DNA from: Clostridiaceae bacterium
GTDB lineage: Bacteria > Bacillota > Clostridia > Saccharofermentanales > DTU023
Length of the DNA stretch: 64,000 nucleotides
Direction of reading: 5' to 3'
NCBI GenBank assembly: GCA_012799695.1
Contig: JAAZKT010000001.1
Location: 17,658-81,657, forward strand
Part shown: positions 8,223 through 34,924 of the stretch, piece after piece
Position numbering within the stretch: position 1 is the stretch's first letter
How the letters are laid out: each line of letters begins with the position of its first letter
The notes under the pieces: generated by a model
The model's input: only the letters and a program-made list of their open reading frames with translations
What the model was told of the DNA's origin: nothing
The model's database searches: none
Position numbers and translations under genes: made by a program

Positions 8223-8228
8223 TCGTGA

Positions 8229-8305: not shown

Positions 8306-8374
8306 ATGGACACAAAAAATTGCATAGTAATGTATATTGCTTAATATTGCGTACGGGATCAAACTAATAAAAAA

Positions 8375-9526: not shown

Positions 9527-9564
9527 TTATTGCCCATCCATCTAACGTCTATAGTCAAGATTTT

Positions 9565-10626
9565 TTAGACGAGTCGTTTCTCTACGTAAGGAGAGGTTGA
9601 AGCGCGCAATAAAGCCGCGTAATCAGGCGAAAACTCGAGCACGTCTCCAACCTTGAAGTCGCGGACGGCATGCGTAATATCAAGCATCATGTAATCGCTT
9701 GACGCACCTAGGAATGCAATCGTGCTATCTTTAGGCTCCAACGTATCGCAACGCACATCCTGCTCACCGATGGCGAGAATCGCGCGCCAAATCTGTCCGC
9801 GATCTTCGAAAACAGGAATCTCGTTGAAAGAATTCGGTCCGATTAAACCCGTCGGAACGGATGGTTTACGTCTCAGCTCGACAATCTCCGCCCTGACAGT
9901 AAAGACATCAGTAAAGAGATCGTGAAGTCGCTTTCGGAATGATGTCTCAATACCGAGCAGGTAACCCTCGCCGACGCGAAGATGCGTGATTCCCAACGGG
10001 AGTCTGTTTTCAGAAAGCATGTAGAGGGAACCCGTGTTGCCTCCGGAAACAATCGGTAGCGGAACATTGAACCGGCGCCGAATATCTTCAGCCATCGCGC
10101 TTAGCTCCTCCAGCTGGCGCTCTTCGGGAATGACACCCCCGTAGCAGTTAAAATTCGCCCCGATACCCGCCAACCATACGCCACGCAGATTAAGTACACG
10201 AGAAGCGACATCAAACATCTCATCCGGCATGAACCCCTCGCGCAAATCTCCCATCTCAACCATTAAAATGACACCGTGCTCACGGTCGAGCGCCAGCGCC
10301 GCATCCGACAACGCCTCAATGGCGGATAAGTCGGAATTAAGACTTAAATCGGAATAGCGCACAACGTCATTCGCATTCGAGATCATCGGCACCCGGAGCA
10401 TCATACGCGACAGTCCGAGGTCACTCATCTCACGTAAATTCTCGACGCGGGAATCGGCAAAATACTCAACACCCGCCTCATGCAAGACTTCGAGAAAAGG
10501 TCGCCATCCTGACAAACATTTGGTGACAAAGTGTATTTGAACGTTTGAATCCTGCCCCATCTTCAAGATAGTACGCACATTGTGAATAAGTTTCTCGCGA
10601 TCAATTAGCAATTCAGGATATGACAT
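9565..10626 (-). CDS. orr: Ornithine racemase (alanine-racemase-fold PLP enzyme)
   Basis: A 353-aa protein with an Ala_racemase_N-type barrel (HFVTKCLSG around the PLP-Lys). The call rests on its position at the end of the ord/ort/ora cluster, as in the described Clostridium sticklandii ornithine cluster. Confidence 0.7.
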   Translation of the reverse strand: MSYPELLIDREKLIHNVRTILKMGQDSNVQIHFVTKCLSGWRPFLEVLHEAGVEYFADSRVENLREMSDLGLSRMMLRVPMISNANDVVRYSDLSLNSDLSAIEALSDAALALDREHGVILMVEMGDLREGFMPDEMFDVASRVLNLRGVWLAGIGANFNCYGGVIPEERQLEELSAMAEDIRRRFNVPLPIVSGGNTGSLYMLSENRLPLGITHLRVGEGYLLGIETSFRKRLHDLFTDVFTVRAEIVELRRKPSVPTGLIGPNSFNEIPVFEDRGQIWRAILAIGEQDVRCDTLEPKDSTIAFLGASSDYMMLDITHAVRDFKVGDVLEFSPDYAALLRASTSPYVEKRLV

Positions 10627-10638
10627 AATGACCTCCTG

Positions 10639-11994
10639 TCAGGACAATTTCAATGACGAAAGCATCAATTTAACGGCCGCCTCAGGGTAGGCGTTAGCCA
10701 TGACGCCACATGCAGCCATCAAATAGTTGTGATCTATCATAACACGCGCAAACTCCGACGGATAGAGATAATCGGTCACAGGCACCGACAATACTTCGCC
10801 GATCATTGATCCGGCACAGGTCAACTTTGTCAATGCGCCGCCTGTCGCGATGACCGACGTAACGGCAGTCAAATCGCGACCTCGTATCGTCATCCGTCTT
10901 CCTCGTGTCGTAAATTGTTCCGTCATGCGACCGGCGTGGCGTTCCAGTGCCTCGCGACAACAAGTTCTCACAAGTGGAAGCACGAGTGAAATCTGGTCTC
11001 TATTCTCAGGTATCTCCGGCACGTTCGCAAGCTGTAATTCGTAATCAGCAGGTAGCCTCGCCCTCTCACCGGCATTCATCGCGCCGATGACGTGTGAACG
11101 ATTGACGAACACGCCCAAGTCGCCTTCAACTGTCCGCTTGGCGAACGGCTCCGGTTCTATGCGATAGTGGCGCAAGTCTTCACTGCCTTCCGTTACCGAG
11201 TGAAGATCGGTTGTCGCTCCTCCGACATCAAAAGTCATCAAATCGCCGAGTACGTCGAAGAGCCGCTCCGTCATCGCCATCACGGCGCCCGGTGTCGGCA
11301 TAATCTTTCCCGTCACCGCTTCGTGTATGCGCGCCATCCCGGGAGCCTCGATGATGTGTTCTTCAAAGATGTCCTGAATCATCGCGCGCGCAGGATCAAC
11401 ATCGAGTTGATCAAGCGACGGATAAACATTCTTCGTTATGTACAATCGGATGTTTTTCTCCTGAGCGATCGCTTTGATCTCTCGCCAATTATCGGTGTTC
11501 CCGGCGTACAAGACCGGCGTCCCCGGCATATGCTCTGTCAGAACCTTGAAGTTGTGAAGTGCCGTCTCGCGCTCGCCGCCGTCAACGCCGCCCGCCACCA
11601 TCATGATACGCGGAGCGATGGCGCGCACTTCTTCAAGATCATAAGTGCCGAGCCTTCCGGCGGTAACCATGCGAATTACTGCGCCTGAACCGAGTGCCGC
11701 CTCGCGAGCGGCGCGCACCGTCATCTCGGGAACTAACCCGTGAACGGTCATTGAGAGACCGCCCGCCGCGGAACTTGTCGCGAAGATATGGTCGGATTCG
11801 ATCATCTCGACGCCGAGATTACGGGCGAGATCGATTCTTGCCCTTTGAAGGCCAAGGACGACGTCTCCCTCCCCGCTGGATGTCGCCGCCATCCCCTGCC
11901 CGAGAAAGACGGGAGCGTCACCGGTCAAGTCGGTAAACGCATTGACGACTGTCGTCGTGCTTCCAATTTCCGCTACGAGCAACTCAACGTTCAT
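10639..11994 (-). CDS. GlmL/MutL-like protein (putative aminomutase reactivase)
   Basis: A 451-aa protein with the ASKHA-type start LLVAEIGSTTTVVNAF and the motif DVGGATTDLHSV. It resembles the glutamate mutase L component and overlaps the end of oraE by 11 nt. Confidence 0.65.
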   Translation of the reverse strand: MNVELLVAEIGSTTTVVNAFTDLTGDAPVFLGQGMAATSSGEGDVVLGLQRARIDLARNLGVEMIESDHIFATSSAAGGLSMTVHGLVPEMTVRAAREAALGSGAVIRMVTAGRLGTYDLEEVRAIAPRIMMVAGGVDGGERETALHNFKVLTEHMPGTPVLYAGNTDNWREIKAIAQEKNIRLYITKNVYPSLDQLDVDPARAMIQDIFEEHIIEAPGMARIHEAVTGKIMPTPGAVMAMTERLFDVLGDLMTFDVGGATTDLHSVTEGSEDLRHYRIEPEPFAKRTVEGDLGVFVNRSHVIGAMNAGERARLPADYELQLANVPEIPENRDQISLVLPLVRTCCREALERHAGRMTEQFTTRGRRMTIRGRDLTAVTSVIATGGALTKLTCAGSMIGEVLSVPVTDYLYPSEFARVMIDHNYLMAACGVMANAYPEAAVKLMLSSLKLS

Positions 11995-14284
11995 CGCATC
12001 CCTTTCGCATTTCGCGGCGCCGTTTCACGAGAAAACTCGCCACGTCAATACCGCGACTGCCGCGCCCGAATCCGCCATCCATGCCCGCTTCGACCGCGAG
12101 CTCATTGACGACTTGTGTGCCTCCGCCGACAAGGATGATTTGATCCCTGATGCCCTTCTCGATGCAGATGTCCGCGATCTTCCTCATGTTCTCGTAATGA
12201 ATGTCGTGATGCGAAATAATCGTCGAAGCGAGAATGGCATCGGCATTCGTCTCAATCGCCGCGTCAACTATTTTATCCATAGGAACGGATGTTCCGAGAT
12301 AGTGATAGCGGATACCGAACCCTTCAATCCCGCCGTGCTTGATGTCGAGAATTTCTTTCAAGCCGACGGAATGCTCATCCTCACCGACCGTGCCCGCGAC
12401 GACAGTCATCGGGTGCTCACGGATATCTTCGCGGATCTCCGACTCCGACAATGTCTCGATCACTTCAGGGAGCACAAGTTTCGACAAATCGATGTCGAAG
12501 TCGATTTTGCCCTTCATTTCGATGTAGGTGCCCTCCACGGGATGCATCACTTGACAGTGGATAATTTCACAATCTGAAAGCCCCATTCTTTCGCCGATAA
12601 CAAGCGAAGCGGCTTCCGCATGGCGCCGATCGCAGGGAAGCATCAGCGTCAAAACGATAACGCCGTCCGCCAAGAATTCGACTTCAGGTCTGACAAGATT
12701 CGGATTGTCATAATATTTTTGTTTTTCGGCGATACGGACGTTTACGTTATCATACTCGTCGAGCTCATCGATAAATTGTATCTTGGACGGGTCTTGGAAC
12801 GTATCACCGCCAATTGCCTCGCTCGCACACTCAAACGGAGCGGGGATGTTGTTGTATCCGAAATGGACGGAGACGGGTGCGAAATAGTCGTCGGCACGCT
12901 TGAACAAGCTATCCGCTCCGATGCCGCCATCGAGTTCACGTGCAATCCCGTCGCCCTTGCGATCGGGATATTCGGCACTGTCGATGAAGAATCCCTCTTC
13001 AACGGCGCTAAAATAGCCGCCGACCTCAAGCATCTCCTCCAAAAAGAGAATGGCGCGCTCTTTCAGCTCGCGCACGCGTTCGCCGAGCGGGCCGTCACGG
13101 TTGATGTCGACCATCTCGCGGATACCGTCAAGGCCGTTGAGCGATTGACGCGCCGTATTGACGGCATTGATGTTGAAATAGTGCCACGGGACATTGCGTC
13201 CCTCATCCGGCGTGATCGTTGATTGAACATCGACTGAAGTCAGGCGCGAGATGACCATATTGAGCGTATGCGTCACCGTCGCTTCGCGTGTTTCCGACTC
13301 CATATATTTCGTGTTTTGTTGGGCACGAATTCTATAATCTCTGAAAAAATCTCTCAACGCGACTGCATAGGGCAAGTCTATGCGCATGCACGGCGCGGGG
13401 GGCGCCGTCGGGGGAACGCTTGAGAGCGCGATGTTCTCCGGTTTGATTCCGCACTTGAGCGAGAACATGGTGTTGATCGCGTGTTGAACCATCAGCTCGG
13501 GCATGACTTTCCACGCCTCCATCGCCGTCGCGTTCGCGTTGTGCGCGCCGTCGATTTGGAGTTGCCCTCCATATGCGATGATTTTCTTGCTTTCACACGC
13601 ATCGACGAAACTTCGGAGCATGTTGATGTTTCTGTAGAGGATGTTATATTGCGGGTCCTGATGGACGCCGGACACGCCTTCCTCGACGAACATCACGGCG
13701 ATATCGGGACCGGCAACGCCGGAAACGTAAGAGTGATAATTAATCGGACGACCGACCTCGTCTTCGATGAGGTCGAGCGCTCGGCGCGTCGCGCGACATT
13801 GCTTACGTGTCACGGGAATGCCGCCGATGCCCTGTGTCGTGCCCTCCAGCAACGAATCAATATGCGATTGCCCTGCCGTCCTGATCACCATGATGTGATC
13901 GGCGCCGTTCCAAGCAGCCATGCGCATACGGCGAATATCGTCCTCAAATCGACCGGAAGCGATTTCCGTCGTGATGACGCAATCTGGCTGCGGGTCAATG
14001 TAACCCAAACCTCGACTCCCCGGTAAAGGCACGGAGTTCTCAAGTGACTCTGACGTCTCCAGATACTCAAACGCGCCGATCTTTCTCGACTCTCCTCGAC
14101 CTTCACGCCAATGCCACGGGCGTCTCGGTGAGCGGTAATTCTCCAAACCGTCGAGAATTTTGCGAACATCGAATCGCTCATTAATGTCGAGAGTAATCGA
14201 CGTTTCACGAGCCGCTTGAACCGATCCGTTCTCTCCTTGGCGACCGTCACGGACAACTTTGTCTTCGCAAACATCACGTTTCAT
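11984..14284 (-). CDS. oraE: D-ornithine 4,5-aminomutase, large (E) subunit, B12/PLP-dependent
   Basis: A 766-aa protein with a TIM-barrel part and a C-terminal Rossmann B12-binding domain (VVAGTVGEDEHSVGLKEI, DxHxxG-type). Its start overlaps the oraS stop (ATGA). Confidence 0.85.
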   Translation of the reverse strand: MKRDVCEDKVVRDGRQGENGSVQAARETSITLDINERFDVRKILDGLENYRSPRRPWHWREGRGESRKIGAFEYLETSESLENSVPLPGSRGLGYIDPQPDCVITTEIASGRFEDDIRRMRMAAWNGADHIMVIRTAGQSHIDSLLEGTTQGIGGIPVTRKQCRATRRALDLIEDEVGRPINYHSYVSGVAGPDIAVMFVEEGVSGVHQDPQYNILYRNINMLRSFVDACESKKIIAYGGQLQIDGAHNANATAMEAWKVMPELMVQHAINTMFSLKCGIKPENIALSSVPPTAPPAPCMRIDLPYAVALRDFFRDYRIRAQQNTKYMESETREATVTHTLNMVISRLTSVDVQSTITPDEGRNVPWHYFNINAVNTARQSLNGLDGIREMVDINRDGPLGERVRELKERAILFLEEMLEVGGYFSAVEEGFFIDSAEYPDRKGDGIARELDGGIGADSLFKRADDYFAPVSVHFGYNNIPAPFECASEAIGGDTFQDPSKIQFIDELDEYDNVNVRIAEKQKYYDNPNLVRPEVEFLADGVIVLTLMLPCDRRHAEAASLVIGERMGLSDCEIIHCQVMHPVEGTYIEMKGKIDFDIDLSKLVLPEVIETLSESEIREDIREHPMTVVAGTVGEDEHSVGLKEILDIKHGGIEGFGIRYHYLGTSVPMDKIVDAAIETNADAILASTIISHHDIHYENMRKIADICIEKGIRDQIILVGGGTQVVNELAVEAGMDGGFGRGSRGIDVASFLVKRRREMRKGCDER

Positions 14285-14670
14285 GAGGCCACCTCGTCAA
14301 ACAATCGCGCCGCCACGTCCCAGTGCTTGCCCTCGGCAAGGAACAGTCCCGTTTCACGTATGGAGAGTCCGAGCTCTTCCGCCACTTTCCAGACGACATG
14401 CCCGGCACCTCTCCCCATTAGCCCGTGATCGATTACGCCGCGCACAATAGCCTGTGCCTCAATGCTTGAAAACCCCATACGAAGGAGCACGCTTCGCTCA
14501 ATGGCGGGAGTCGTATATTCTCTTCCCGCTTGGAGGAGCGGCTCGACAAGCTTCTCCGTCAACTCCCAAAAACGTGTATAGAGTTCTTCATCTGACAGAT
14601 GTGCGAGATGTAGGCGTCTTTCCTCAAAAGTCGCATCCGTTGACAAATCTCTTTCTCCGCGATCGGTCAT
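14281..14670 (-). CDS. oraS: D-ornithine 4,5-aminomutase, small (S) subunit
   Basis: A 129-aa protein placed immediately upstream of, and coupled to, oraE. Size and position match OraS. Confidence 0.75.
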   Translation of the reverse strand: MTDRGERDLSTDATFEERRLHLAHLSDEELYTRFWELTEKLVEPLLQAGREYTTPAIERSVLLRMGFSSIEAQAIVRGVIDHGLMGRGAGHVVWKVAEELGLSIRETGLFLAEGKHWDVAARLFDEVAS

Positions 14671-14708
14671 TCAGATCCTCTCCCATCCTAATAAGTTCCC
14701 ATTAAATG

Positions 14709-14736
14709 AACTGCCGTCACATGAATGACGGCAGTT
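14709..14736 (-). promoter_or_regulatory. Intercistronic hairpin between ortB and oraS
   Basis: AACTGCCGTCA, a 6-nt loop and TGACGGCAGTT form a perfect 11-bp stem in the 78-nt gap between the two genes. Confidence 0.4.
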
Positions 14737-14748
14737 TCAGTACTGGAT

Positions 14749-16146
14749 TCACAGTGTTTCAAGCATCGCTTTCGTCTCTTCAATGGAGAGATTGAGCTCC
14801 TCAGCCATGTAGGCGATCTCACTCTCCGACCACGGACCGCCATCGGCGACGAGGCGGCGCAGAGCGGAGGCGCGCAGGCGACTCATATCGTAATCGCGCA
14901 CGCGGATCATCGACGGGTGCGCCGGCAGGACAATCGACTCGCCGGGGACCTCTTCTTCCGGATCCCCGATATAAACGTTGATGCCGTTCTGCCTCGCGAA
15001 TGTCAACTGAGCCATCGGGTGTTTCCCCGCGCCCGTGTATTCCGTTTCCTGAACTACGATGGTCTTGTCTTCCGGCATCGTCCTAGCAAGAGCGAAGGCG
15101 GCCGCCAGCGATGTATTGCCTGCCGGTCCGCGCTCAAGTCCTTCCAACGTCGCCAACATTTCCGTCGTGTAAAATACCTCGCCCTGCTTGACGAGGAGAT
15201 AACGATCGATGTAACGCAAAGCGCGGGCGGCGTTCCTCGGAACATCACTTCGATCGGGAAGCGATGCGAAGGGGATACCGAAGCCGGTGTGACCCGTCGT
15301 AAACGATTTGCGATTGAAGTCGCGGTCGGACGCCATCGACAAGCCGGATAGATCAACGCTCGCTGCGTAGACTTTTGTATCGACGAGACCTGCTTTAATG
15401 AGTCCTCTGGCCGTTCCGGTCAGATTGCCGCCACCCGCATGTGTCGCAAGGACGACATCGGGAACGAGACCGTATTCGTCACGACATTGGCGCGCAATCT
15501 CATATCCGAGCGTCTCAATGCCTGCGATGGCGGAAGGAGAATAGAGTGACGCGTTGTAAAAACCCGTCTCCTCCAACATGCGGAGCGCCAGGTAGAAAAG
15601 CTCCGGACCTACCGTCGTCTGAACGACTTCGGCACCGAACGCCTCACATTTTCTCTGTTTTTCGAGGATTTCGGGCTGCCCGACGAGCTCGCTGTCGTAG
15701 CATTCTTGGAGCACGATGCATTTTAAACCGAGCTTAGCCGCCATGCTGGCGACCGCGGCGCCGTAATTGCCGGACGTCGCCGCGATAACGCCTTTGTAAC
15801 CCTTCCGTTTGGCATCCCATACGGAAAGCGCCGCGCGGCGCGCTTTAAAGCTACCCGAAGGATTGGCGGCTTCGTCCTTGATGAGAATTCTTGCGCCGTA
15901 ACCGGGTTCCGACACCTTTCTCGCGAGCGCCGTCACGTTTTTCAAGTCCATGAGCGGTGTGTTTCCGACTCCGAAATCGCGTTGAATCCGGACGACTTCA
16001 TCGATCGTGATGCCGACGTCATGCATCATGGCTTCATAGTCAAAGGCAATGCCTTCGCCCTCATAGTCATCGTAATTGATGCCGAGCGATTGGCGCATAA
16101 TATCATTCTGCCGATCCATTACGGCTCCATATGTCATATCCTTCAT
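14749..16146 (-). CDS. ortB: 2-amino-4-ketopentanoate thiolase, beta subunit (PLP, tryptophan-synthase-beta fold)
   Basis: A 465-aa protein with the PLP-Lys motif NPSGSFKARRA and the glycine loop GGGNLTG. Its start overlaps the ord-ortA stop (ATGA type, 16143-16146). Confidence 0.85.
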   Translation of the reverse strand: MKDMTYGAVMDRQNDIMRQSLGINYDDYEGEGIAFDYEAMMHDVGITIDEVVRIQRDFGVGNTPLMDLKNVTALARKVSEPGYGARILIKDEAANPSGSFKARRAALSVWDAKRKGYKGVIAATSGNYGAAVASMAAKLGLKCIVLQECYDSELVGQPEILEKQRKCEAFGAEVVQTTVGPELFYLALRMLEETGFYNASLYSPSAIAGIETLGYEIARQCRDEYGLVPDVVLATHAGGGNLTGTARGLIKAGLVDTKVYAASVDLSGLSMASDRDFNRKSFTTGHTGFGIPFASLPDRSDVPRNAARALRYIDRYLLVKQGEVFYTTEMLATLEGLERGPAGNTSLAAAFALARTMPEDKTIVVQETEYTGAGKHPMAQLTFARQNGINVYIGDPEEEVPGESIVLPAHPSMIRVRDYDMSRLRASALRRLVADGGPWSESEIAYMAEELNLSIEETKAMLETL

Positions 16147-17510
16147 TTCGACTCACCTCCGAACATGAGCTCGAACACTTGTCTGTGAACGGCAGTCAAC
16201 TCCGGGACGCTATGCCCGAATGTATGCGTCGGAGAGATAGGAAGATCCGATACCGTTCCCGTCACCAATCGATCGCTCATCGTCCTCACGGTAACGAGGT
16301 CTCCGCGAGTTGCCGATTCCTCCTGCAAGAAACCTTTTGTAAAAGCGCGAAGCGGTGTCCGTTTCGTGTCATCGGGCACTTGAGGTGCGCGCTCGCCAAC
16401 GGGAAGAATAACGGTCTCGACGGAGACAAGTTCGCCTCGGCGGTATCGATGATCTCTCTCCTGATGAATCTGCTCGGCGTAATTGCCCAAGATACAGCGA
16501 GGCACAGGGAGATCGAGCATCGAACGGAGTCCCGGTTTCGCGCCGATCACGTGCGGAATCATGTTGACAGCCATGGCGATCGTCCCGATGCCGCCCGGCG
16601 TCTCGGGAACAATAGAAAGATTCATATCGTATCCGTCGGCGCGAATGGTCACATAGTCGCCCGTATTGACCCCTTCGTCTTCAGGACAGATCTGTTGAGG
16701 GTGGTCGAGGTGAATAAAGACTTTGCCATTGGCGAGACGTCCGTAGCTTTGTTGACGTATGCCGGCGAGATTACCCTTCTTCGCCTCACCATGTGCAGAT
16801 TTTCTGTCGACGTTCGAGATGATCGGATCACGTGTCTCTTCAATATCGGCCAACGCGACACCCATGCCTTCGGCGATCATCGACATGGACTCGGGAAAAC
16901 CGACGTGTCCGGAGAGACTGCCTTCCTCCATGCGCCTCTTGAATTCATCGATGGATATTCCAACGCCCTGTTCAACCATAACGGACTTTCCGAAAGGAGC
17001 GAGATCATTGACGCGCGCGGCTGAGATCGACTCGACATGTTCACACGTTCCACTCAAGGCGAGAATCAGGTAGTCGAGGACAAAGCCTGGGTTGATCCCC
17101 GTGCCGAGCACGGAAACACCGCGCATCTTCGCAAGCGCATCAATCTTGTCCGCGAGCTCTTCATTCTGCGCCCATGGCCACGCCATCTCTTCGGCAATCG
17201 AAAGGACGTGAACGCCTCGCTCAAGGCAGAACATAATCTTGTCAAACTGAGTTTCAACGAACGAATCGGTCGCCAAGACTACGATGTCACAAAGATCGCG
17301 TCTGACGATATCCTCGATTTTATTCGTGATGAACACGGGGTCGCGATCGCCGCGATCGATGCCCAGATAAGCGTATACTTCCTGCCCGACGAGGTGATCC
17401 CGCCTAACACAAACACCTGATAAGGCGAGTCCCTCCTTCGAAGCGATCATCTTGGCTATCCCGCTCCCCATAGCGCCTAAACCCCAGAGAGCGACTCTGA
17501 TATCTCTCAT
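16143..17510 (-). CDS. ord-ortA: Fusion protein: 2,4-diaminopentanoate dehydrogenase (Ord) plus 2-amino-4-ketopentanoate thiolase alpha subunit (OrtA)
   Basis: Residues 1 to about 350 form a DapB-like NAD(P) dehydrogenase (VALWGLGAMGSG). Residues from about 356 to 455 (RGELVSVETVILPVGERAPQVPDDTKRTPL...) match the roughly 100-aa OrtA family. The whole is a single open frame with no stop at the junction (about 16446). Confidence 0.8.
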   Translation of the reverse strand: MRDIRVALWGLGAMGSGIAKMIASKEGLALSGVCVRRDHLVGQEVYAYLGIDRGDRDPVFITNKIEDIVRRDLCDIVVLATDSFVETQFDKIMFCLERGVHVLSIAEEMAWPWAQNEELADKIDALAKMRGVSVLGTGINPGFVLDYLILALSGTCEHVESISAARVNDLAPFGKSVMVEQGVGISIDEFKRRMEEGSLSGHVGFPESMSMIAEGMGVALADIEETRDPIISNVDRKSAHGEAKKGNLAGIRQQSYGRLANGKVFIHLDHPQQICPEDEGVNTGDYVTIRADGYDMNLSIVPETPGGIGTIAMAVNMIPHVIGAKPGLRSMLDLPVPRCILGNYAEQIHQERDHRYRRGELVSVETVILPVGERAPQVPDDTKRTPLRAFTKGFLQEESATRGDLVTVRTMSDRLVTGTVSDLPISPTHTFGHSVPELTAVHRQVFELMFGGESK

Positions 17511-17562
17511 AAACTTCCCCTCCCGTCAAACGATCCGCATCGCCTGACTAGTATTTACAGCA

Positions 17563-26558: not shown

Positions 26559-26574
26559 ATGTACATATGTACAT
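26559..26574. promoter_or_regulatory. Perfect 16-bp palindrome ATGTACATATGTACAT upstream of the SorC-type regulator gene
   Basis: It lies 16-31 nt upstream of the sorC-like ATG (26543) and contains TACAtaTGTA. It is a candidate operator. Confidence 0.4.
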
Positions 26575-26611
26575 TACAATTGTTTCATTAAGTTGATTTT
26601 ATTTGAAACTA

Positions 26612-27208
26612 TTAGTGTCTGTCAATGGATTTTGACGCACATATGTGCACGTTTCTGTATTTATATGAGTTGTTCTTGTCTTCCGATTCAAATACTGAAA
26701 ATTGCGGATAACAATGCGCATAAAAACGGGCAACGCTTTCGTCACTGCCCGAATATTTCACCATCCACAGTCTCATGCAATGGTTATAGATGCTATCCGG
26801 TGAGTAGCAGTAACTGAACATGTGTGCCCAACAACCCTCGGTCATAACATTAGGATTGTCGGAAAGAAGATAATGCAAAGATAAATTAGAGCTTTCAGGA
26901 TCCGGTTTGTATGAGCTTTTCACCAGATATCGGTAATTCCTCGAAAACAAGTACTCATCTCCACCTTTTGAGTCATAGAATTGCAGCAGAAATGTCGAGC
27001 CGTCGTAGCTCAGTTCATTGACAGTAGAGTCGCCCCCTTGATCGGCATACATCTGGTAGATTCGCACTTTAGCCTCGCACCCCATGGCAGTACTGTTTTC
27101 AAAATCCGCCCATGCCCTTTCTCCTGCCAAGAGAGTCTCTACGTCCAGAACCACACAGCCGTCCGCCATCGCCTCTTCCGCAGAATAGTTCTTGCGCGTA
27201 TCCGCCAA
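26612..27208 (-). CDS. Stand-alone, truncated paralog of the BlaR1-like extracellular sensor domain (function unknown)
   Basis: A 198-aa ORF (TTG start at 27208 with AAGGAG 10 nt upstream, or ATG 39 nt further in). Residues 1 to about 147 align almost colinearly with residues about 352-498 of the BlaR1-like protein (for example KNYSAEEA.ADGCVV, AWADFENSTA, ELSYDGSTFLLQFYDSKG, PDPESSNLSLHYLLSD). The tail is unrelated, and there is no signal peptide or TM segment. Confidence 0.5.
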   Translation of the reverse strand: MADTRKNYSAEEAMADGCVVLDVETLLAGERAWADFENSTAMGCEAKVRIYQMYADQGGDSTVNELSYDGSTFLLQFYDSKGGDEYLFSRNYRYLVKSSYKPDPESSNLSLHYLLSDNPNVMTEGCWAHMFSYCYSPDSIYNHCMRLWMVKYSGSDESVARFYAHCYPQFSVFESEDKNNSYKYRNVHICASKSIDRH

Positions 27209-27222
27209 ACGCGCTTCACTCC
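26771..27222. repeat. Copy A of an approximately 450-bp dispersed duplication (partner at 31861..32321)
   Basis: Aligned base by base by eye, identity is about 85-90 percent, with a 2-nt indel at one end and a roughly 9-nt indel at the other. Both copies have the same orientation. Confidence 0.9.
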
Positions 27223-27257
27223 TTCTTTCACCCTAAGCCGACATAGACTCTTCAACT

Positions 27258-27287
27258 ACTCTAACGCGTTAGAAAAATGTCATTCTA
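27258..27287 (-). promoter_or_regulatory. Putative promoter -10 plus BlaI-type operator in front of the stand-alone sensor-domain gene
   Basis: The reverse strand reads TAGAAT (27287..27282), 6 nt, then TTTCTAACGCGTTAGAGT (27275..27258). The core TCTAACGCGTTAGA (27260..27273) is a perfect palindrome. The layout matches the blaI-like promoter. Confidence 0.5.
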
Positions 27288-27442
27288 GGCCATTGGACTG
27301 AATTTTTAAGAGGGAAATGGACTGAATTTGGCGTGAACGAAATAATATGCAGGATTTCATGCTACAATCTAACCAAGCTATTTTCATTTGAGTTTATCTG
27401 AGTTGATTTTTGATTGGCAAATACTCCAAAAGAGGAAAGACC

Positions 27443-28342
27443 ATGGTAAAAAACAACTCGTCACCCGCAATAGACAATCTAACGCTGAACGGAATCCCCG
27501 TAAGTATCCGCTACGACTATCTCTTTAAAAAGATATTCGCATCGGAAGACAGCAAAAGCGCTGTCGCGCATCTCATCCACCTGACGACAGGCCTTCGCAA
27601 GGAAGATGTGAGCGATTTGACAATCTCGAACCCTTATCTGCTGTTCCACAACATAAGGGATAAGCGCAGCATCGTCGACATCCTCATCAGGTTGAAGGAT
27701 GGCAAAAGAATCAATATTGAGATGCAAAACCACTGGCATCCGTTCTATCCCGAGCGAGCCATCTATTATTGGTCGCTCATGTATCAGGATACGTCGCGCG
27801 CAAGAGAGGGCTATAATAAGCTTAGCAAGTGCATCGGCATCCACTTGCTTAACGAAGCCTTCCATTTAGGCGAAAAACTACAATCGACGTATGCGATACG
27901 CGAAGAAAACGGTTCACTTTTATCGGACGTCTTGGAATTACACTTCTTTGATCTGACGAAGTTGCCGGAAGAAACAAAAGAACTGTTGCAAAGTGAAATC
28001 AGTGAATTGGAGCGTTGGTTGCTGTTCATACGAACAGACAGTCAGGAAGTGCGTAACGTGCTATCGGAAGGAGACGAACTCATGAGTGAATGCAATGACA
28101 AAGTGCAATCTGTTTTCTATACCCCGAGCGAGCGGGAAATTTACATCCGCGAACACATCGCCGAGATGGATCACTACTCGATCATGCGGGAAAAGTATGA
28201 GAGCGGCCTTAAAGAGGGCCTGCAGAAAGGCAAAGAAGAAGCCAAGCTAAACATCGCCAGAGCCTTGCTAAAAAGCGGAATCGACAAAGATATCATTCAA
28301 CAGACAACTGGGTTGGATCGGGAACAACTTGAAAACTTGTAA
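27443..28342 (+). CDS. Rpn-family PD-(D/E)XK recombination-promoting nuclease / putative transposase
   Basis: From ORF 27410..28342, with the ATG at 27443 and GAGGAA upstream. It shows the family start IRYDYLFKKIF, the nuclease core SIVDILIRLKDGKRINIEMQ and the typical C-terminal helical tail (KEEAKLNIARALLKSGIDKDIIQQTTGL). Confidence 0.8.
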   Translation: MVKNNSSPAIDNLTLNGIPVSIRYDYLFKKIFASEDSKSAVAHLIHLTTGLRKEDVSDLTISNPYLLFHNIRDKRSIVDILIRLKDGKRINIEMQNHWHPFYPERAIYYWSLMYQDTSRAREGYNKLSKCIGIHLLNEAFHLGEKLQSTYAIREENGSLLSDVLELHFFDLTKLPEETKELLQSEISELERWLLFIRTDSQEVRNVLSEGDELMSECNDKVQSVFYTPSEREIYIREHIAEMDHYSIMREKYESGLKEGLQKGKEEAKLNIARALLKSGIDKDIIQQTTGLDREQLENL

Positions 28343-28505
28343 ATGCTGGATATATTTCCGCATTTCGGACAGTAAGGAGCATTCATTGTATTTCACTGTC
28401 CTTGCCAATTTACTCTATAAACATAAACGAACATTGAAGGGATTTTGAGCGTAGTCGGGATAGAGCGCCGCCTCATCCGGGAAAAACCCGAGTTTATAAG
28501 GCGCC

Positions 28506-29162
28506 TTATGCCCCAAGTTTCAAGTCTGGAATGACAATAACTTTATCGGCGATCTCCTTCAATGAATTGTCGTGCGTCGCGATGACGATGGACTTCCCGC
28601 TCTTTTGCAGTTTTCTGAGAAGTCCGATGACGATCTCCTTGTTGCCTTCGTCGAGGCTGCCGGTCGGCTCATCGCAAAGGATCATTTCGCACGGTTTCAA
28701 GAGCAGCCTCGCGATCGCGATCCGTTGCTGCTCACCGCCCGAGCATTCAAAGATGCGTTTTTCAAGGAAGTTTTCTTCAAGTCCCACCTCCGCCAACGCA
28801 ACTCTTTTGAATGTCTGCTTATCCGCACGAGAAGCCTTGATCATCTCAAGAGCGATATCCAAATTCTGTTCCACGGTCATGTGGTTAATGAGAGCGAAGT
28901 CCTGAAAAAGGTAGCCGATCTTCTGTGCCAGTATCTTCTCCGCCTGGTGCGAGAAGGGCTTCACATTCTTCTTGCCCCACCAGACGATCTCACCGCGATC
29001 GGGCGTCTCGATCAGGCCGAGAATATTGAGCAACGTCGATTTGCCGGAACCGGATACACCCGAAAGGACGACCATTTCTCCCGCCCGGATAGAATCTGTC
29101 ATGTTGCGCAGTACGGGTATTCTGCCGAATGATTTATGTAGCCCGCGCCATTCGATTTGCAT
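28506..29162 (-). CDS. ABC transporter ATP-binding protein (lactococcin-972-group/FtsE-MacB-like)
   Basis: Walker A GVSGSGKST, Q-loop, signature CSGGEQQR, Walker B ILCDEPTGSLD and H-loop IATHD. Its ATG overlaps the permease stop (TAATG). Confidence 0.9.
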   Translation of the reverse strand: MQIEWRGLHKSFGRIPVLRNMTDSIRAGEMVVLSGVSGSGKSTLLNILGLIETPDRGEIVWWGKKNVKPFSHQAEKILAQKIGYLFQDFALINHMTVEQNLDIALEMIKASRADKQTFKRVALAEVGLEENFLEKRIFECSGGEQQRIAIARLLLKPCEMILCDEPTGSLDEGNKEIVIGLLRKLQKSGKSIVIATHDNSLKEIADKVIVIPDLKLGA

Positions 29163-31375
29163 TATTTTTCCCCCTTTAGCATCGTTGCCATGCGTTTTTG
29201 AATGCGCCGTGTGAAGAGTATGTGGATGAGCACATCAAGCCCAAGCAGTCCTGTAAAAAGCGCCAGCGAGGTGTTAAACGCCAACTTAACTTCCATGAAA
29301 TCAAAAGTGTATCCCTCATAACTAAGGTTCATGATCTGCCTGAAAAAATCCGGGAACAATGTAACGGCAAGTAAAGCGGTTACGTATGGAATCAGCACGC
29401 GCAGCCACAAGAAACGGTAACGGCGCAAGAATGGTGTTCCGTGAAGATATGCTAAGTTGAGCCACTTGTTCTTGTCCAGAAAGTATACTGCCGCGTTCTG
29501 GTAGCTTAAGAATGCAAAGCTGACGAGCAAATACGCCATGATGACCGCGGGGCGGCGCACTGCTTGCAAGTTAAGTTCTTTTGTCTGTATCATCGGTTCG
29601 GAGCAAAGCTCGTACCAGTCGGGAGAATATCCTCCCGCATCCATGACCTTGCGGATACTCTCCCTGTTTTCCACCGTATCCGGAACGTAATTCGCGTAAG
29701 CCTTCGCATGAGCGGACGACACGAGGATAAGGATGGAGTCGTACGCCACCTCACCGGTCGGGAGGAGAATCTTCTGATTCCGCTTGATCGGGATCGTCTT
29801 TTTCCCTCTTGTCAGTTCATCCAACATAAATGTACTGGCGTCTTCAAGCTTAGCGCCTTCCGGAACGAGGAGAACGGTCGTTTCTGGAGGAGCATCGAAT
29901 TGAATCTGTTCGCCGTCCGCATCAAGGATTTTGTTCATGAGAGTCACTTGGTATGAAATTTGCGCACAGCCAAGTTGGACTTCTGTCGTCATCAGTTCGC
30001 CTTTTTCGTCGATGCCCTTAATCTCGATGGCGCCACGCGCTATATAGTTTGATGTGAGGGCTCCCCACTCATGCTGATGCTTTTTGAAGTAGTTTTTTAT
30101 CTCACTGCTCTTTGACATACGTTTTGCTTCGTCTTCAAAGGGAAGTGTCGCGTCCTCCACATGGAACGCAATTTGATTGCGCGCGTATCGCCGCTCGGCG
30201 CGAGAAGCATTGTATAGACTATTCAGTGGTGGAAAAAGGTCGAAGAGCTGGGCAGCGATGAGGAGCACAAGAATAATTTTCAGAACGAGACTGATGTTGG
30301 AAAAGAGGGTAAGTGAACTTGTCTTTTTCGTCGAGATAACGGGGCGGACGCGCTTAATATAAATGACGGCGATGCCGAAGGACAACGCTATCATAAGCAG
30401 AACAGCCGCGATAAAGAGGAGAAGCAGTTTCAGAAACTCGAGGAAAAGCGCATTCCAGTACGTAACCGTCACGAGCAATGTAGCGAGTGTCGTCACGAGA
30501 AGAGTGAGCGCCATCCATCCGTTGAACGGCAGGAACAGCTTAAACGCAATCGCGCTCGTCGATTGGCCGAGCATCTTGCGAATACCGATCTCCTTTGACA
30601 TTTCTACGACATCCAATGAATAGCTGGCGACGATAATGGCGAACAGTGCGGCAGCGAAAAGATAAATAATCGTATAAGCGGGTCCCGTTTCACTTTCTGC
30701 AAAGAGCTGCATGGTTTCGTTGAATTCGTCATAAGGATGGATTCCGCCAAAATACGGATATTCATTCTGCTCATACAGTCGGAGAAGGCGCAACGCCTCC
30801 TGTCGCCGCTCAGTCACCAGATGACCTCGAATGGAAGGAAAGTCGCTCTCAGGGCGGCCGGCGAATCGCTCACGCGCCATACTCATCGGACTATAGAGCT
30901 GTTTGACCTTCTCTCCGTCGAGTTCTGAGGCTGACAAATCCGTCATTCTCAGAATAGTTCCCTGCTCGTCTTCCGGCGGCCATACGTATGCTCGGGTGGC
31001 TGTCCGGCTCCAATCACAGGCTGGATCGCTGTAAAAAAATGGAGGGAGCAACTCCTTCTCATTGGAATGGATATACGTCTGCCCGTAAATCGTCTCGTCC
31101 TCAAGTATCGTTGTAACTTGAAGCACAAGATCGCCTTCGACCGCCTCCGTGATTTCCATCAAGTCGTCAAACAACTTCAGCGGCGTCTCCGTATCATAAT
31201 AATTGATCCAAAGACTGACGGTCTTTTCCGGGGCGAAGCCGGGCATCTCTTTGATTAAGGCTTCGGGGCTAAACTTCTTATGGTGATTTTCTTCGAACAT
31301 GATGCGGCCTTGTGACACACAGAGGATCGTCAACAGAACGAGGAAGAAAAGAAGAAATAATCGTCTCTTAAGCAT
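29162..31375 (-). CDS. ABC transporter permease, FtsX-like/DUF1430-type (bacteriocin-associated integral membrane protein family)
   Basis: A 737-aa protein with an N-terminal TM segment, a large extracytoplasmic domain, a TM cluster carrying the FtsX-type motif GIRKMLGQS, a second extracytoplasmic domain and a C-terminal TM cluster. The family assignment is made by architecture and needs an HMM check. Confidence 0.7.
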   Translation of the reverse strand: MLKRRLFLLFFLVLLTILCVSQGRIMFEENHHKKFSPEALIKEMPGFAPEKTVSLWINYYDTETPLKLFDDLMEITEAVEGDLVLQVTTILEDETIYGQTYIHSNEKELLPPFFYSDPACDWSRTATRAYVWPPEDEQGTILRMTDLSASELDGEKVKQLYSPMSMARERFAGRPESDFPSIRGHLVTERRQEALRLLRLYEQNEYPYFGGIHPYDEFNETMQLFAESETGPAYTIIYLFAAALFAIIVASYSLDVVEMSKEIGIRKMLGQSTSAIAFKLFLPFNGWMALTLLVTTLATLLVTVTYWNALFLEFLKLLLLFIAAVLLMIALSFGIAVIYIKRVRPVISTKKTSSLTLFSNISLVLKIILVLLIAAQLFDLFPPLNSLYNASRAERRYARNQIAFHVEDATLPFEDEAKRMSKSSEIKNYFKKHQHEWGALTSNYIARGAIEIKGIDEKGELMTTEVQLGCAQISYQVTLMNKILDADGEQIQFDAPPETTVLLVPEGAKLEDASTFMLDELTRGKKTIPIKRNQKILLPTGEVAYDSILILVSSAHAKAYANYVPDTVENRESIRKVMDAGGYSPDWYELCSEPMIQTKELNLQAVRRPAVIMAYLLVSFAFLSYQNAAVYFLDKNKWLNLAYLHGTPFLRRYRFLWLRVLIPYVTALLAVTLFPDFFRQIMNLSYEGYTFDFMEVKLAFNTSLALFTGLLGLDVLIHILFTRRIQKRMATMLKGEK

Positions 31376-31483
31376 ATCGATACTCCAAATATGAAGGTGT
31401 CATTCTTAGCACACGGCACAAGCATCTCTTTTCGAGATACTCCCTCCTTCATCATTCTTAGGTGAGAAGGAGAGAAACGAATC

Positions 31484-33349
31484 CTATTTCATTCCGGTAG
31501 GAAATGTCTCCCCGTTCTCATCAAGCAGAACGAGTGTTCCGTCCCGAATGACAATGTCAAAAAGCTCTCCGACGATAGACGGATACTCCGCCACGCCCCA
31601 GTTTTTCATCTGCACTTTCAGCGTGCCGTCTTCTTCTTGGAAAAAGCTGATGACGCCGCGGTTTGGGGCTGGAGAGAAAAGTCCGGCATACTCGAACTGA
31701 TCGCCTTCAAAAACAGTCAAAGTGAAGGTAGCGACACCGGAGGTTGGCCCATAGCCGAGGCAACATTTTTCCTCTATCCCGTCGTTGTCGATGTCGACAA
31801 AAGCGAGTCCAAATCCACGTTGAAGAAGGTATCCGTTGTCAATGAGCCGGCTAAACAATCTCTCGCATTGGTTATAGATGCTATCCGGCGAGTAGTACGA
31901 ACTAAACATGTGTGCCAAATAACCCTCGGCAGTCACATTAGGATCGTCGGAAAGAAGATAATGCAAAGATAAATTTGAGCTTTCAGGATCCGGTTGGAAT
32001 AAGCTTTTCACCAGATATTTGTAATTCCTCGAATACAAGTATTCATCTACACCTTTTGAGTCATAGAATTGCAGCAGAAATGTCGAGCCGTCGTAGCTCA
32101 GTTCTTTGACAGTATAGACGCCCCTTTGATAAGCATACATCTGGTAGATTCTCACTTTCGCCTCGCGCCCCGCGGCAGTGCTGTTTTCAAAATCCGCCCA
32201 TGCCTTCTCGCCTGCAAGCATCGTCTCCCCGTCCATCACCACACAGCCGTCCGCCTCCGCTTCTTCCGCGGAATAATTCTTGCGTATATCCGCCAACGCC
32301 GGCCACGATTCCTTCACCTCCGCTTCGGTACGTTTTGACACATCTGTCTCAGTGGATTTAGGCACCTCCGTTTCAGTGGGTTTCGACACATCAATGTCCG
32401 TTTTAGGAGGATAGGTCAGAAAACATACGGCTAAAATAACACCTGCCGCGACGACTGCCAAAATAACCCAGAAAGTCGGCTTCTTATAATTCAACACACG
32501 CTTCACTCGTTCTTTCACCCCGATTTCGCCAAAAGCGAGAGGGCACGCGGCGATCCGACCGTGAGAAATGCTGCAGGTGAGCAGCGACTGAGAATAATCG
32601 GCTCTCTGTTCTCGGTTCAATCCTTTGATAACTCTTTCGTCGCAGGCAAGCTCGACATCGCGGCAAAACAAGACGTACGCGATCCACATGACCGGATTAA
32701 ACCAGTGAAGTGAAAGCAACAGATAACCAAATGGTTTAATCCAATGGTCTTTTCGTGCGATGTGTGCTCGTTCATGAGCGAGCACATAATCTACATCCGA
32801 CTCCGACAAAGAAAACGGAAGATAAATCTGCGGTCGTATTAGACCGAGCACAAAGGGAGACGCGATCCTTTCGCTTTTCCATACACCCAGTTCTAACCGA
32901 ACCGCCGTCTTTACCTCGCGTTTCAGGCGCAAATAGCTGATCAGGGCGTAAAGCAGCATCACCGCAACGCCCACCACCCAGATAACGAAGGCAATGGATA
33001 CGCTAGTTCGCACAGGATGGCTACCGGTGACGGGATCGGGCGCCAAGGACTCTTTAAGAATGGGATTGACGACACGATTAACGTAAGCAATACCGCTATG
33101 GATCGCCGGCTCTTCCGCCACCAAAATCTCGGGGCCGACGATCTCGCCGCTCGGAATCAGACTCAGCGGACTTTCAATGGAAAAGGGGAAGAGCAACCGC
33201 AACGCGACCAGTCCCCACAAAAAGGGAAATACGCGCTTCGGCACTTTTCGAAAAATTACTCGAATCAGTATAACCGCAAGTGCGAGATACGATGCGGTCA
33301 CTCCCAGATTGACCATATTCAGGAATAACTCATTCATGCTTCGTCTCAC
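31484..33349 (-). CDS. BlaR1/MecR1-family M56 sensor metalloprotease with a non-PBP extracellular C-terminal domain
   Basis: M56 Zn motif HERAHIARKDHW (HEXXH at 32762..32776) within an N-terminal 4-TM region, then a TM segment at about residues 292-312. An extracellular region of about 300 aa follows, with no SxxK/KTG penicillin-binding motifs. The likely start is ATG 33337 (MNELFLN), overlapping the blaI stop (ATGAATGA). Confidence 0.85.
   Translation of the reverse strand: MRRSMNELFLNMVNLGVTASYLALAVILIRVIFRKVPKRVFPFLWGLVALRLLFPFSIESPLSLIPSGEIVGPEILVAEEPAIHSGIAYVNRVVNPILKESLAPDPVTGSHPVRTSVSIAFVIWVVGVAVMLLYALISYLRLKREVKTAVRLELGVWKSERIASPFVLGLIRPQIYLPFSLSESDVDYVLAHERAHIARKDHWIKPFGYLLLSLHWFNPVMWIAYVLFCRDVELACDERVIKGLNREQRADYSQSLLTCSISHGRIAACPLAFGEIGVKERVKRVLNYKKPTFWVILAVVAAGVILAVCFLTYPPKTDIDVSKPTETEVPKSTETDVSKRTEAEVKESWPALADIRKNYSAEEAEADGCVVMDGETMLAGEKAWADFENSTAAGREAKVRIYQMYAYQRGVYTVKELSYDGSTFLLQFYDSKGVDEYLYSRNYKYLVKSLFQPDPESSNLSLHYLLSDDPNVTAEGYLAHMFSSYYSPDSIYNQCERLFSRLIDNGYLLQRGFGLAFVDIDNDGIEEKCCLGYGPTSGVATFTLTVFEGDQFEYAGLFSPAPNRGVISFFQEEDGTLKVQMKNWGVAEYPSIVGELFDIVIRDGTLVLLDENGETFPTGMK
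31861..32321. repeat. Copy B of the approximately 450-bp duplication (partner at 26771..27222)
   Basis: See copy A. This copy lies inside the BlaR1-like gene and encodes residues about 343-497. Confidence 0.9.
32306..32401 (-). repeat. Four imperfect 24-bp (8-aa) tandem repeats encoding the acidic juxtamembrane linker of the BlaR1-like protein
   Basis: The protein reads TDIDVSKP / TETEVPKS / TETDVSKR / TEAEVKES, directly after the TM segment. Confidence 0.85.
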
Positions 33350-33716
33350 TTCTGTACTGGTCGATCATCTTCTGCACCTCGTCGATTTCGTCTTCTGAAA
33401 TCTTCTGGTGCTTCGTGAAGGCTGCAATAAAGGCCGGCAGGGAGCCCTCAAACTTCTTCTCCACCAACTCGCTGATCTCCGCCGCCTGCACTTCCTCCCG
33501 TGAAATGAGGGACGTTACGATCGTATCTTCGTTCTGTACGACGCCGCGATCCGAAAGTCGCCTGATAACGGTGTACGTCGTCGTGGGCTTCCAGCCCAAC
33601 TCTTCCTCGCACAGTTGAACAAGCTCCGAGCTTTTAATTGGCTCATGCTCCCACAGAATCAGACAAAATCGATATTCGCTCTCAAAGACTTTTGGCGTTT
33701 CCATCATTCCCTCCAT
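33330..33716 (-). CDS. BlaI/MecI/CopY-family transcriptional repressor
   Basis: A 128-aa winged-helix protein (ESEYRFCLILWEHEPIKSSELVQLCEEELGWKPTTTYTVIRRLSDRGVV) with a C-terminal dimerisation helix. It overlaps the sensor protease gene. Confidence 0.9.
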   Translation of the reverse strand: MEGMMETPKVFESEYRFCLILWEHEPIKSSELVQLCEEELGWKPTTTYTVIRRLSDRGVVQNEDTIVTSLISREEVQAAEISELVEKKFEGSLPAFIAAFTKHQKISEDEIDEVQKMIDQYRSETKHE

Positions 33717-33740: not shown

Positions 33741-33793
33741 ACTCTAATGCATTAGAGTTTATTTCATTCTAACCGATTAGAGCGAAATGTCAA
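33741..33793 (-). promoter_or_regulatory. blaI-like promoter with two TCTAA-N4-TTAGA dyads (putative operators)
   Basis: The reverse strand reads TTGACA (33793..33788), 16 nt, then TAGAAT (33771..33766). Dyad 1, TCTAACCGATTAGA (33768..33781), overlaps the -10. Dyad 2 is the perfect 18-bp palindrome ACTCTAATGCATTAGAGT (33741..33758), 24 nt before the ATG. Confidence 0.55.
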
Positions 33794-33952: not shown

Positions 33953-34924
33953 ATGAGCCATAACGTCAAAAAGTATGTCTACGGAAAACCTGCACTTGAT
34001 TATTGGCGAGTGCCGTCAATCCGAGGCAACATCGAGCCGGTCGACATGATCTTTCCTGACGAGTACGTTATCTTCACCGATAAGCCCATTTACCGTCCTG
34101 ATCGCGCCATCATACACACGTGCAGTATCCCCGGTGCCAATAAATACGTCAAAGGACGAGCGTGCACACTCCCGCTCGTATTTCTTCAAGTCGCCCTGGA
34201 GTACAGCATCCTCGAATTGATTTTTCTAGGACTCCAAATCTGTTCCTACCGCGAAGGCGATCAGCCTCGATGCACCGTCGAAGAACTGCGTGCCTGCGCC
34301 GAAGAACTGCGAGGACATCGAGGGCGAAGAAAAGCACTCCGAGCTATTCGCTATCTAGACAACAACTCACGGTCTCCGATGGAATCAATTCTTTACATGT
34401 TTCTGCGTTTGCCCAATGCGCTAGGAGGGTGCGGCTTTAGCGAAATCGTGCTCAATGAAAAGATTGTTTTGGAAGGGGGCAAAACGTACTTTGCAGACCT
34501 CTACGTCCCTTCTTGTAAACTTGATATCGAATACGACAGTGAAGAATTTCACAGCAGCGCCTCGGCATTATCAAAAGATCGGGAGCGTACCGCTCATCTA
34601 GAAGCAGAAGGCTATCACGTCGTTTCAGTGAACTACGCAAAATTGAACAACCTCAAAGCCTTTCAAAGCTTAGCGCGCCAACTCTCCCATCTGATACGAA
34701 AACGCATTCACATTCGCGCAAGAAAGTATTTTGAGAACTTCGTCGCCTTGCGCGATCTGCTGTTCAAGAAAGGACTTAGTCTTCGCTCACGTTTCCGCAA
34801 AATCCACTGTCGAGAAGTACCCCAGTTCGCCGGAGTACGCATCATGTATAGAATCTACCTTGCTGCCTGGAACAGACTCATCCGGCACCCCAACCTCCCC
34901 TTGGTATTAACGCGAGCACCTTAA
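33953..34924 (+). CDS. DUF559/Vsr-like endonuclease-domain protein (hypothetical)
   Basis: A 323-aa protein. The C-terminal half carries the pattern YFADLYVPSCKLDIEYDSEEFHSS...RTAHLEAEGYHVVSV, which is typical of DUF559-type restriction-endonuclease-like domains. No clear RBS is present, so the start is uncertain. Confidence 0.5.
   Translation: MSHNVKKYVYGKPALDYWRVPSIRGNIEPVDMIFPDEYVIFTDKPIYRPDRAIIHTCSIPGANKYVKGRACTLPLVFLQVALEYSILELIFLGLQICSYREGDQPRCTVEELRACAEELRGHRGRRKALRAIRYLDNNSRSPMESILYMFLRLPNALGGCGFSEIVLNEKIVLEGGKTYFADLYVPSCKLDIEYDSEEFHSSASALSKDRERTAHLEAEGYHVVSVNYAKLNNLKAFQSLARQLSHLIRKRIHIRARKYFENFVALRDLLFKKGLSLRSRFRKIHCREVPQFAGVRIMYRIYLAAWNRLIRHPNLPLVLTRAP

Follow-up and report, generated by a model that had tools for sequence, protein, structure and literature searches.

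The window, that is, the whole 64,000-nt stretch of the Clostridiaceae contig JAAZKT010000001.1 analysed here, carries a blaI-blaR1-like operon and, some kilobases away, a small open reading frame (ORF) of 198 aa that repeats part of the blaR1-like gene; both copies are minus-strand genes, and the blaR1-like gene, which encodes an M56 sensor-protease, is called the parent below (Table 1). The other loci with which the window was compared are denoted L001, L002 and so on. In a Clostridiaceae metagenome-assembled genome (MAG) the identical ORF product is annotated as the 'hypothetical protein' NMA35249.1. The blastn alignment of 26768..27208 with 31856..32296 covers 441 nt with 56 mismatches and 0 gaps, its limits varying by one base (26767/8..27208 against 31855/6..32296, 441-442 nt, E ~1e-156), and in the BLASTP alignment 118 of 148 residues (80%) are identical between aa 1-148 of the ORF and aa 352-499 of the parent (E 9e-84). 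The duplication is genuine, chance being excluded by a wide margin. It may be noted that the initial annotation had described, by eye, a same-orientation copy of about 85-90% identity with the frame kept, which agrees with the 87.3% identity and the absence of any indel over 441 nt; the block ends it gave, 27222 and 32321, did not hold, as contiguous homology ends at 27208 and 32296. Other parts of that description are borne out by our alignments: homology begins directly after the linker repeats of the parent and ends about 20 residues before the DIDNDG segment, the ORF tail of about 50 aa is unrelated to the parent and matches nothing in it or in its surroundings, and the ORF has no transmembrane segment or signal peptide, there being no hydrophobic leader and the first residue of the ORF being the first residue of the module. 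Its TTG start is the parental Leu352 codon and the first start-like codon after an in-frame TAG (27235..27233) nine codons upstream.

Table 1. Features of the relic, its parent operon and the adjoining genes in the window.
Feature	Position	Strand	Description
Small ORF	26612..27208	-	198 aa, first codon TTG
Relic piece 1	27234..27350 (limits approximate)	-	Copy of blaI promoter, operators and 5′ untranslated region; aligns with the blaI promoters of the window, L001, L002 and L004
Relic -35-like element	27309..27304	-	TTAAAA (resident -35, TTGACA)
Relic -10 element	27287..27282	-	TAGAAT, from promoter scan
Relic second operator	27260..27273		TCTAACGCGTTAGA, perfect 14-bp palindrome
Relic piece 2	27209..27233	-	25 nt from blaR1-like codons ~277-285 (GVKERVKRV, end of M56 domain)
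Relic piece 3	26768..27208	-	Extracellular module 1 (blaR1-like codons 352-498); the part of the small ORF with homology to the parent
ORF tail	26612..26767	-	Non-homologous; terminator-like hairpin (26751..26727); 3′ end is the start of the sorC promoter
sorC promoter region	26559..26625	-	TTGACA-18-TAAAAT (26625..26596); overlaps the end of the small ORF
blaR1-like parent, M56 sensor-protease	31484..33349	-	621 aa by ORF listing; donor-homologous segments 31856..32296 (module 1) and 32496..32520
blaI-like repressor	33330..33716	-	Pfam Penicillinase_R at 2.1e-22; overlaps parent gene
blaI promoter operators	33743..33756 and 33768..33781		First site TCTAATGCATTAGA
Rpn-family PD-(D/E)XK nuclease / putative transposase	27410..28342	+	Divergent from relic, abuts its left end
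737-aa multi-transmembrane protein and overlapping ATPase gene	28506..31375		3′ of blaR1
323-aa gene	33953..34924	+	Divergent from blaI

Two further pieces of the operon lie 5′ of the ORF (pieces 1 and 2 in Table 1), which the initial annotation had overlooked. Piece 2 matches window positions 32520..32496 at 23 of 25 bases, the same place is matched in the blaR1 genes of L002 and L004, and its reading frame differs from that of the ORF. The three non-contiguous pieces keep their original order with one junction out of frame, and a series of promoter and operators, 25 nt of the M56 end and module 1 implies at least three deletions from a full blaI-blaR1 copy. The duplicated block is most likely the largest surviving piece of a relic, about 580 bp long, of the whole blaI-blaR1-like operon. 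The relic holds module 1 minus the last ~4 residues of its terminal strand, where the sequence is non-homologous. In the promoter copy the -10 region TAGAATGA is common to the blaI promoter and the relic promoter, the upstream (first) operator is degenerate, the second is a perfect palindrome with TCTAATGCATTAGA as its resident counterpart, and the 5′ untranslated region is preserved up to TATGTCGG. A pattern search found this operator at 3 sites in the 64 kb, the other two being those of the blaI promoter. An operator-like palindrome upstream of the small ORF had been noticed earlier and is indeed there (TCTAACGCGTTAGA), but it can be accounted for as part of the promoter of the duplicated operon and need not be taken as evidence for a gene. 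Also an AGGAG lies 10 nt 5′ of the TTG in the window.

The tail of the ORF is intergenic control sequence read in frame. Neither the tail nor its hairpin has homology to the sequence 3′ of blaR1 in the window, L002 or L004, so that the far end of the third deletion would lie in unrelated DNA. The next gene after the relic encodes a sorC-type regulator and is the first gene of a mannose-type phosphotransferase system (PTS) operon; its promoter matches 11 of the 12 consensus positions. About 15 nt 5′ of the sorC ATG and 3′ of this near-consensus promoter is a perfect 16-bp palindrome, ATGTACATATGTACAT (core TACATATGTA, 26559..26574), which is conserved in all related loci and, on its sequence and place, is likely to be the operator of the PTS operon. 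An Rfam scan of 26300..27500 gave no match.

Anaerobic digesters, biogas reactors and wastewater have yielded many metagenome contigs with the same arrangement, and the organism is represented in many ENA and JGI samples. The arrangement has the gene order blaI, blaR1, 737-aa membrane protein, ATP-binding cassette (ABC) ATPase, Rpn-like gene (divergent), relic, sorC and PTS genes, and it is fixed in every contig of the species that was examined. Sister sequences of the window ORF come from Saccharofermentanales and Clostridia MAGs. The more distant L002 and L004 have blaI-blaR1 without the transporter, the Rpn-like gene, the relic or the PTS island, and a scan of the GTDB representative genomes, among which the organism of the window is not included, returned L004 as the single distant locus. 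Frame-disrupting changes in close relatives, which the initial annotation had set against a functional reading, are present in L003, L013 and L014, and tail indels in L001. In the L003 relic, codon 18 has gained one base (+1) and codon 152 is a TAG. In L013 and L014, two independent assemblies of which one has 50x coverage, codon 133 is changed from TAC to TAG, and four distinct protein variants of 132 aa fit this nonsense allele. The L001 relic has +3 and -1 indels that shift the frame of the tail, and some strains of the window's cluster carry G82D in the family-invariant YDG motif. An intact frame is found in the strain cluster of the window and in L001 only. The translation signals of the ORF are weak and vary among the copies: the start is a TTG, and where the window and L005 have an AGGAG before it, L003 and the copies of L001 type show the AAAGAG of the parental coding region. 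The hairpin that separates the relic from sorC is a weak one, with its T-run or stem degraded in L001 and L003.

A dN/dS estimate, which had been proposed as a check, gave dN 0.104, dS 0.291 and a ratio (omega) of 0.36 between relic and parent, with a bootstrap range of 0.21-0.66, while parent compared with parent gave 0.23-0.37. A simple reading of the pairwise 0.36 was rejected, as it blends two lineages and includes converted tracts. On polarising the changes with the outgroups, the relic branches had 21 non-synonymous and 11 synonymous changes and the parent branch 10 and 5, so that omega is about 0.5 on both, counts too few to settle the matter; the parental value is likewise indistinguishable from 1 and from 0.3. 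By itself, dN/dS does not show neutrality of the relic. The kind of replacement differs between the branches, being radical in the relic (Y->S, Y->C, R->C, K->N, L->S, G->V; mean BLOSUM62 -1.5) as opposed to conservative in the parent (F/Y, R/K, N/D; mean +0.25). Three family-invariant residues are replaced in the window copy (Y73S, K76N, S145Y), and at position 145 the relic lineages have either Y or a stop. Against a profile of 90 distant homologues, each less than 60% identical to the parent, functional copies score 170-180 bits, the L001 relic 163 and the window relic 155, the homology of the latter extending across the whole module save the last ~4 residues. A neutral simulation with random non-synonymous changes introduced into the L003 relic sequence (n=300) gave 146 +/- 7 bits for the window relic; the observed 155 is within this range and was reached by 8.7% of the runs, as against the parent, which at 174 bits lies above all 300 simulations. 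In the window lineage the relic appears to have lost constraint, and its profile score is down as neutral drift predicts.

Polymorphism was counted among eight collinear strains of the same species. There are 7 segregating sites in the 441 nt of relic module 1 and 0 in the homologous 441 nt of the parent; the relic promoter has 7 in 142 nt, and the flanking genes at most 2.2 per kb. No stretch of the locus is more polymorphic than the relic promoter, where the changes include those at 27283 (in the -10 box), 27289 (directly 5′ of the -10) and 27303 (1 base 3′ of the -35-like element). Gene conversion was also detected. Between nt 60 and 92 the relic of the L001 lineage has ten states that arose as derived in the parent and that neither the other relics nor the two outgroups show (permutation p = 0.0002), which reveals that the parent occasionally overwrites the relic; the low omega between relics is due in part to parental sequence imported in this way. 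No conversion from relic to parent was seen, parental module 1 having no polymorphism in the eight strains and being identical in L001.

The parent matches Pfam Peptidase_M56 (PF05569) at 1.5e-50 over aa 12-283 and has the HExxH motif (VLAHERAHI). The NCBIfam model blaR1_generic matches it only over profile positions 11-317 of 585, i.e. the N-terminal half, with 83 bits against a cut-off of 400. Beyond aa 283 there is no Pfam match and the extracellular region belongs to no NCBIfam family; a sequence profile search of the PDB with this region gave one match, which was non-significant (E = 0.13). An AlphaFold (AF2) model of aa 340-621, encoded by window positions 31484..32332, is beta-rich, with a mean predicted local distance difference test score (pLDDT) of 85.7 and a predicted template-modelling score of 0.85; its first part, of helices and strands, runs to about aa 503 and the second part holds DIDNDG. 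A Foldseek search of the PDB with this model found no match above a template-modelling score of 0.28. Since the extracellular region has no significant fold or sequence match in the PDB, nor one in Pfam or NCBIfam, the parent is by sequence and model an M56 protease with a non-classical sensor and not a beta-lactam-binding BlaR1. The 'BlaR1-like sensor domain' of the initial annotation is correct in so far as the module is genuine, but what it belongs to is an uncharacterised two-module extracellular region rather than a sensor of the penicillin-binding type.

In an exhaustive search the extracellular region had 305 representatives. Module 1 may be joined to an M56 protein, either together with module 2 or in its absence, and it also stands alone in proteins of 175-200 aa, of which public metagenomes hold dozens of examples. 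Of 12 such stand-alone proteins inspected, 11 have a signal peptide, lipobox or transmembrane anchor, the exception (P0113) having no visible export signal and beginning directly in the domain, and in all 12 the terminal strand is complete. On counting functional module-1 homologues of any kind, 14 of the 15 inspected have a transmembrane anchor, signal peptide or lipobox. Some variation within the family was also recorded. At L011 a stand-alone protein with both modules adjoins an extracytoplasmic function (ECF) sigma-factor gene, after which comes a gene of 467 aa without a match in Pfam. P0010, from other metagenomes (L007, L008 and L009), is an intact 453-aa BlaR1-like protein without module 1, its linker joined straight to module 2, which indicates that module 1 is naturally gained or lost in frame in this family. 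Alleles of blaR1 from the same species have 617 or 601 aa (L015, L020); they differ in the TE(T/A)(E/D)V(P/S)K linker repeats (window ~32300..32340), the number of which is polymorphic. The blaR1-like genes of L002 (9010..10852) and L004 (1957..3763) are themselves split or truncated, the outgroup states being a pair of overlapping ORFs of 344 and 283 aa in GCA_040364315.1 and, in a Clostridiaceae MAG, an ORF of 528 aa that stops within module 2; these breaks could be genuine frameshifts or errors of MAG assembly.

Among the neighbouring genes, the Rpn-like gene matches Pfam PDDEXK_2 at 2.6e-46 (158.7 bits against a cut-off of 27.4) and TIGR01784 with 142 bits against 52.1. A second copy was sought in the window and not found. 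Use of this gene as a multi-copy mobile insertion marker was rejected, because there is a single copy in the window and the exact protein occurs in one context, in 23 contigs. Members of the Rpn family reportedly promote RecA-independent recombination in E. coli, and we conjecture that this nuclease may have been involved in the deletions of the relic. On comparing the window with L001, most flanking genes are 98-100% identical (dS 0-0.04) and the Rpn-like gene (window 27410..28342, L001 8855..9766) and blaI have a dS of ~0.14-0.17, a contrast which points to mosaic recombination between strains at this locus. The 323-aa gene, with weak sub-threshold similarity to the restriction-endonuclease-like DUF559 and to MTES_1575, is kept beside blaI in the window, L001, L002 and L004.

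The 737-aa protein has no Pfam hit and scores 37 bits, below the cut-off, with TIGR01654 (bacteriocin-associated integral membrane protein). In the intergenic region between it and blaR1 (31376..31483) there are two copies of CTAAGAATGA, which resembles the -10 region TAGAATGA; the full operator palindrome was not found in this region. The 737-aa protein and the ABC ATPase are probably the regulated output of the blaI-blaR1-like system, perhaps with an immunity or export function. This probable target suggests that what the system senses is not beta-lactams but something else.

From the anatomy of the locus, the broken orthologues and the loss of conserved residues, the small ORF is quite probably a decayed pseudogene, the relic of a second blaI-blaR1-like operon copy, and not a working gene. 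The second copy would have arisen in the ancestor of the species group (uncultured Clostridia of anaerobic digesters) after its split from the lineages of L002 and L004. We infer the order and the mechanism of what followed: one deletion would have removed blaI and blaR1 codons 1 to ~276, another codons ~286-351, which encode the last transmembrane helix and the repeat linker, and a third everything from codon 499 onwards. The start of the ORF would then be the parental Leu352 TTG, and its tail a read-through into the terminator-like hairpin and the sorC promoter. The frame is open because module 1 has as yet acquired no stop in this strain, and presumably no protein is made from it. The initial annotation had offered three readings, namely a decoy or modulator of the sensor, a recruited ligand-binding module and a decaying fragment, and had favoured function on account of the intact frame and the operator; the evidence speaks for the decaying fragment, and the leaning to function is not sustained in view of the broken relatives and the lost invariant residues.

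There are, however, observations that weigh against decay. The 198-aa frame is unbroken in many near-identical strains of the window's cluster, and omega between relics is 0.27-0.32, significantly below 1. The polarised omega of ~0.5 on the relic branches has, on its few counts, p = 0.08 for omega = 1 and p = 0.2 for omega = 0.3. With its frameshift removed the L003 relic scores 172 bits, level with the functional copies. The limits of the relic closely match those of the naturally free-standing module, which is surprising for random deletions. Also the operator, a perfect palindrome, departs from its resident counterpart in a symmetrical manner, and with the usable-looking promoter this makes BlaI-controlled transcription of the relic plausible from the sequence. 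A translated product in the strain cluster of the window is possible but unsupported. If it existed, the ORF might be a BlaI-repressed minigene, in which firing of the sensor derepresses the promoter and cytoplasmic module 1 is made from the TTG as a decoy or ligand sink. A promoter-like site and a perfect operator do lie 50-100 nt 5′ of the ORF, the AGGAG is at 10 nt from the TTG in the window, the frame is unbroken in its strain cluster, the pairwise omega is below 1 and the piece fits almost exactly a module known as a stand-alone protein. Yet close relatives have frameshift and nonsense alleles at the same locus, the AGGAG varies among the copies, export is a feature of nearly all stand-alone homologues inspected but not of the window copy, invariant residues are gone and the profile score has decayed at the neutral rate, unrelated sequence takes the place of the module's last strand and the tail varies among relatives, and the upstream blaR1 piece is out of frame. 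We thus consider the minigene very unlikely.

It is also unlikely, though somewhat easier to accept, that the coding part is dead and the DNA regulatory, the operator titrating BlaI or the promoter driving BlaI-dependent read-through into sorC and the PTS genes. Sites like the perfect 14-bp palindrome number only three in the 64 kb, the elements of the promoter can be recognised and the arrangement is fixed in all contigs of the species examined; moreover, the weak hairpin, with its T-run or stem degraded in L001 and L003, makes read-through into sorC conceivable. As opposed to this, the promoter region is the most polymorphic of the locus, including its -10 box, the upstream operator of the pair is degenerate, and sorC has a strong promoter of its own. 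Taking protein and DNA together, an active relic, either as a second BlaI-controlled unit giving a module-1 feedback protein or through BlaI-dependent read-through into sorC and the PTS, is in our estimate improbable. Least probable of all, to the point of being hardly credible, is that the relic is kept as a conversion partner, a reservoir for diversifying the specificity of the sensor: the L001 lineage does show a conversion tract between the copies, but the transfer detected is from parent to relic and not the reverse, module 1 of the parent is the same in all 8 strains and in L001, and a single degraded cassette is ill-suited to such a role. Lastly, the relic might be an old resident allele displaced by an incoming operon, since it holds outgroup-like states where the intact copy is derived, although the same pattern fits duplication with faster change in the intact copy.

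As for known systems, the parent operon resembles BlaI/BlaR1 and MecI/MecR1 in having a Penicillinase_R gene that overlaps the gene of an HExxH M56 protease and a promoter with two palindromic operators. It is unlike them in that the extracellular part is not of the penicillin-binding or class D beta-lactamase-like kind and the likely targets are the 737-aa membrane protein and the ABC ATPase. For the relic, the closest analogy would be delta-mecR1 in SCCmec. In that case, it is the sole mecR1 copy that IS431 or IS1272 has cut short, leaving the 5′ part of the gene. Here, in contrast, an intact operon coexists with the relic, the relic, which has undergone at least three deletions, retains promoter and operator together with an internal extracellular module, and its neighbour is an Rpn-family nuclease. 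What delta-mecR1, described as truncated M56 sensor-transducer remnants of class B/C mec complexes, shares with the relic is that both are a partly deleted M56 gene of a BlaI/BlaR1-type system, beside a gene of mobile-element type and persisting in the lineage (PMC8283725). The free-standing module-1 proteins (~175-200 aa, of no Pfam family) have domain and size in common with the 198-aa ORF; unlike them, the window ORF is without an export signal, some of the invariant residues are gone from it, and its last strand runs into unrelated sequence. With ordinary bacterial pseudogenes the relic shares multiple deletions, frameshift and nonsense alleles in sister strains, radical replacements, raised polymorphism and homogenisation through gene conversion by the functional paralogue. 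It differs from them in the neat retention of promoter and operator and in a surviving block that matches a domain boundary, but in nothing essential. The relic is an ordinary kind of genomic debris.

The 198-aa 'hypothetical protein' of many Clostridia and Saccharofermentanales MAGs (e.g. NMA35249.1) should accordingly be labelled as a remnant of a blaR1-like gene, and it should neither seed a protein family nor be taken as a cytoplasmic sensor decoy. The comparison also delimits a widespread unnamed extracellular module, found fused to M56 proteins, beside an ECF sigma-factor gene and in lone lipoproteins, which merits a domain family. If the relic were active after all, it would be a case of a sensor-operon relic exapted as a regulatory unit, and read-through into sorC and the PTS genes would link sugar uptake to a sensor of envelope stress or bacteriocins. 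As it stands, the locus is a clean small case in which deletions erode an operon copy and gene conversion at the same time patches it.

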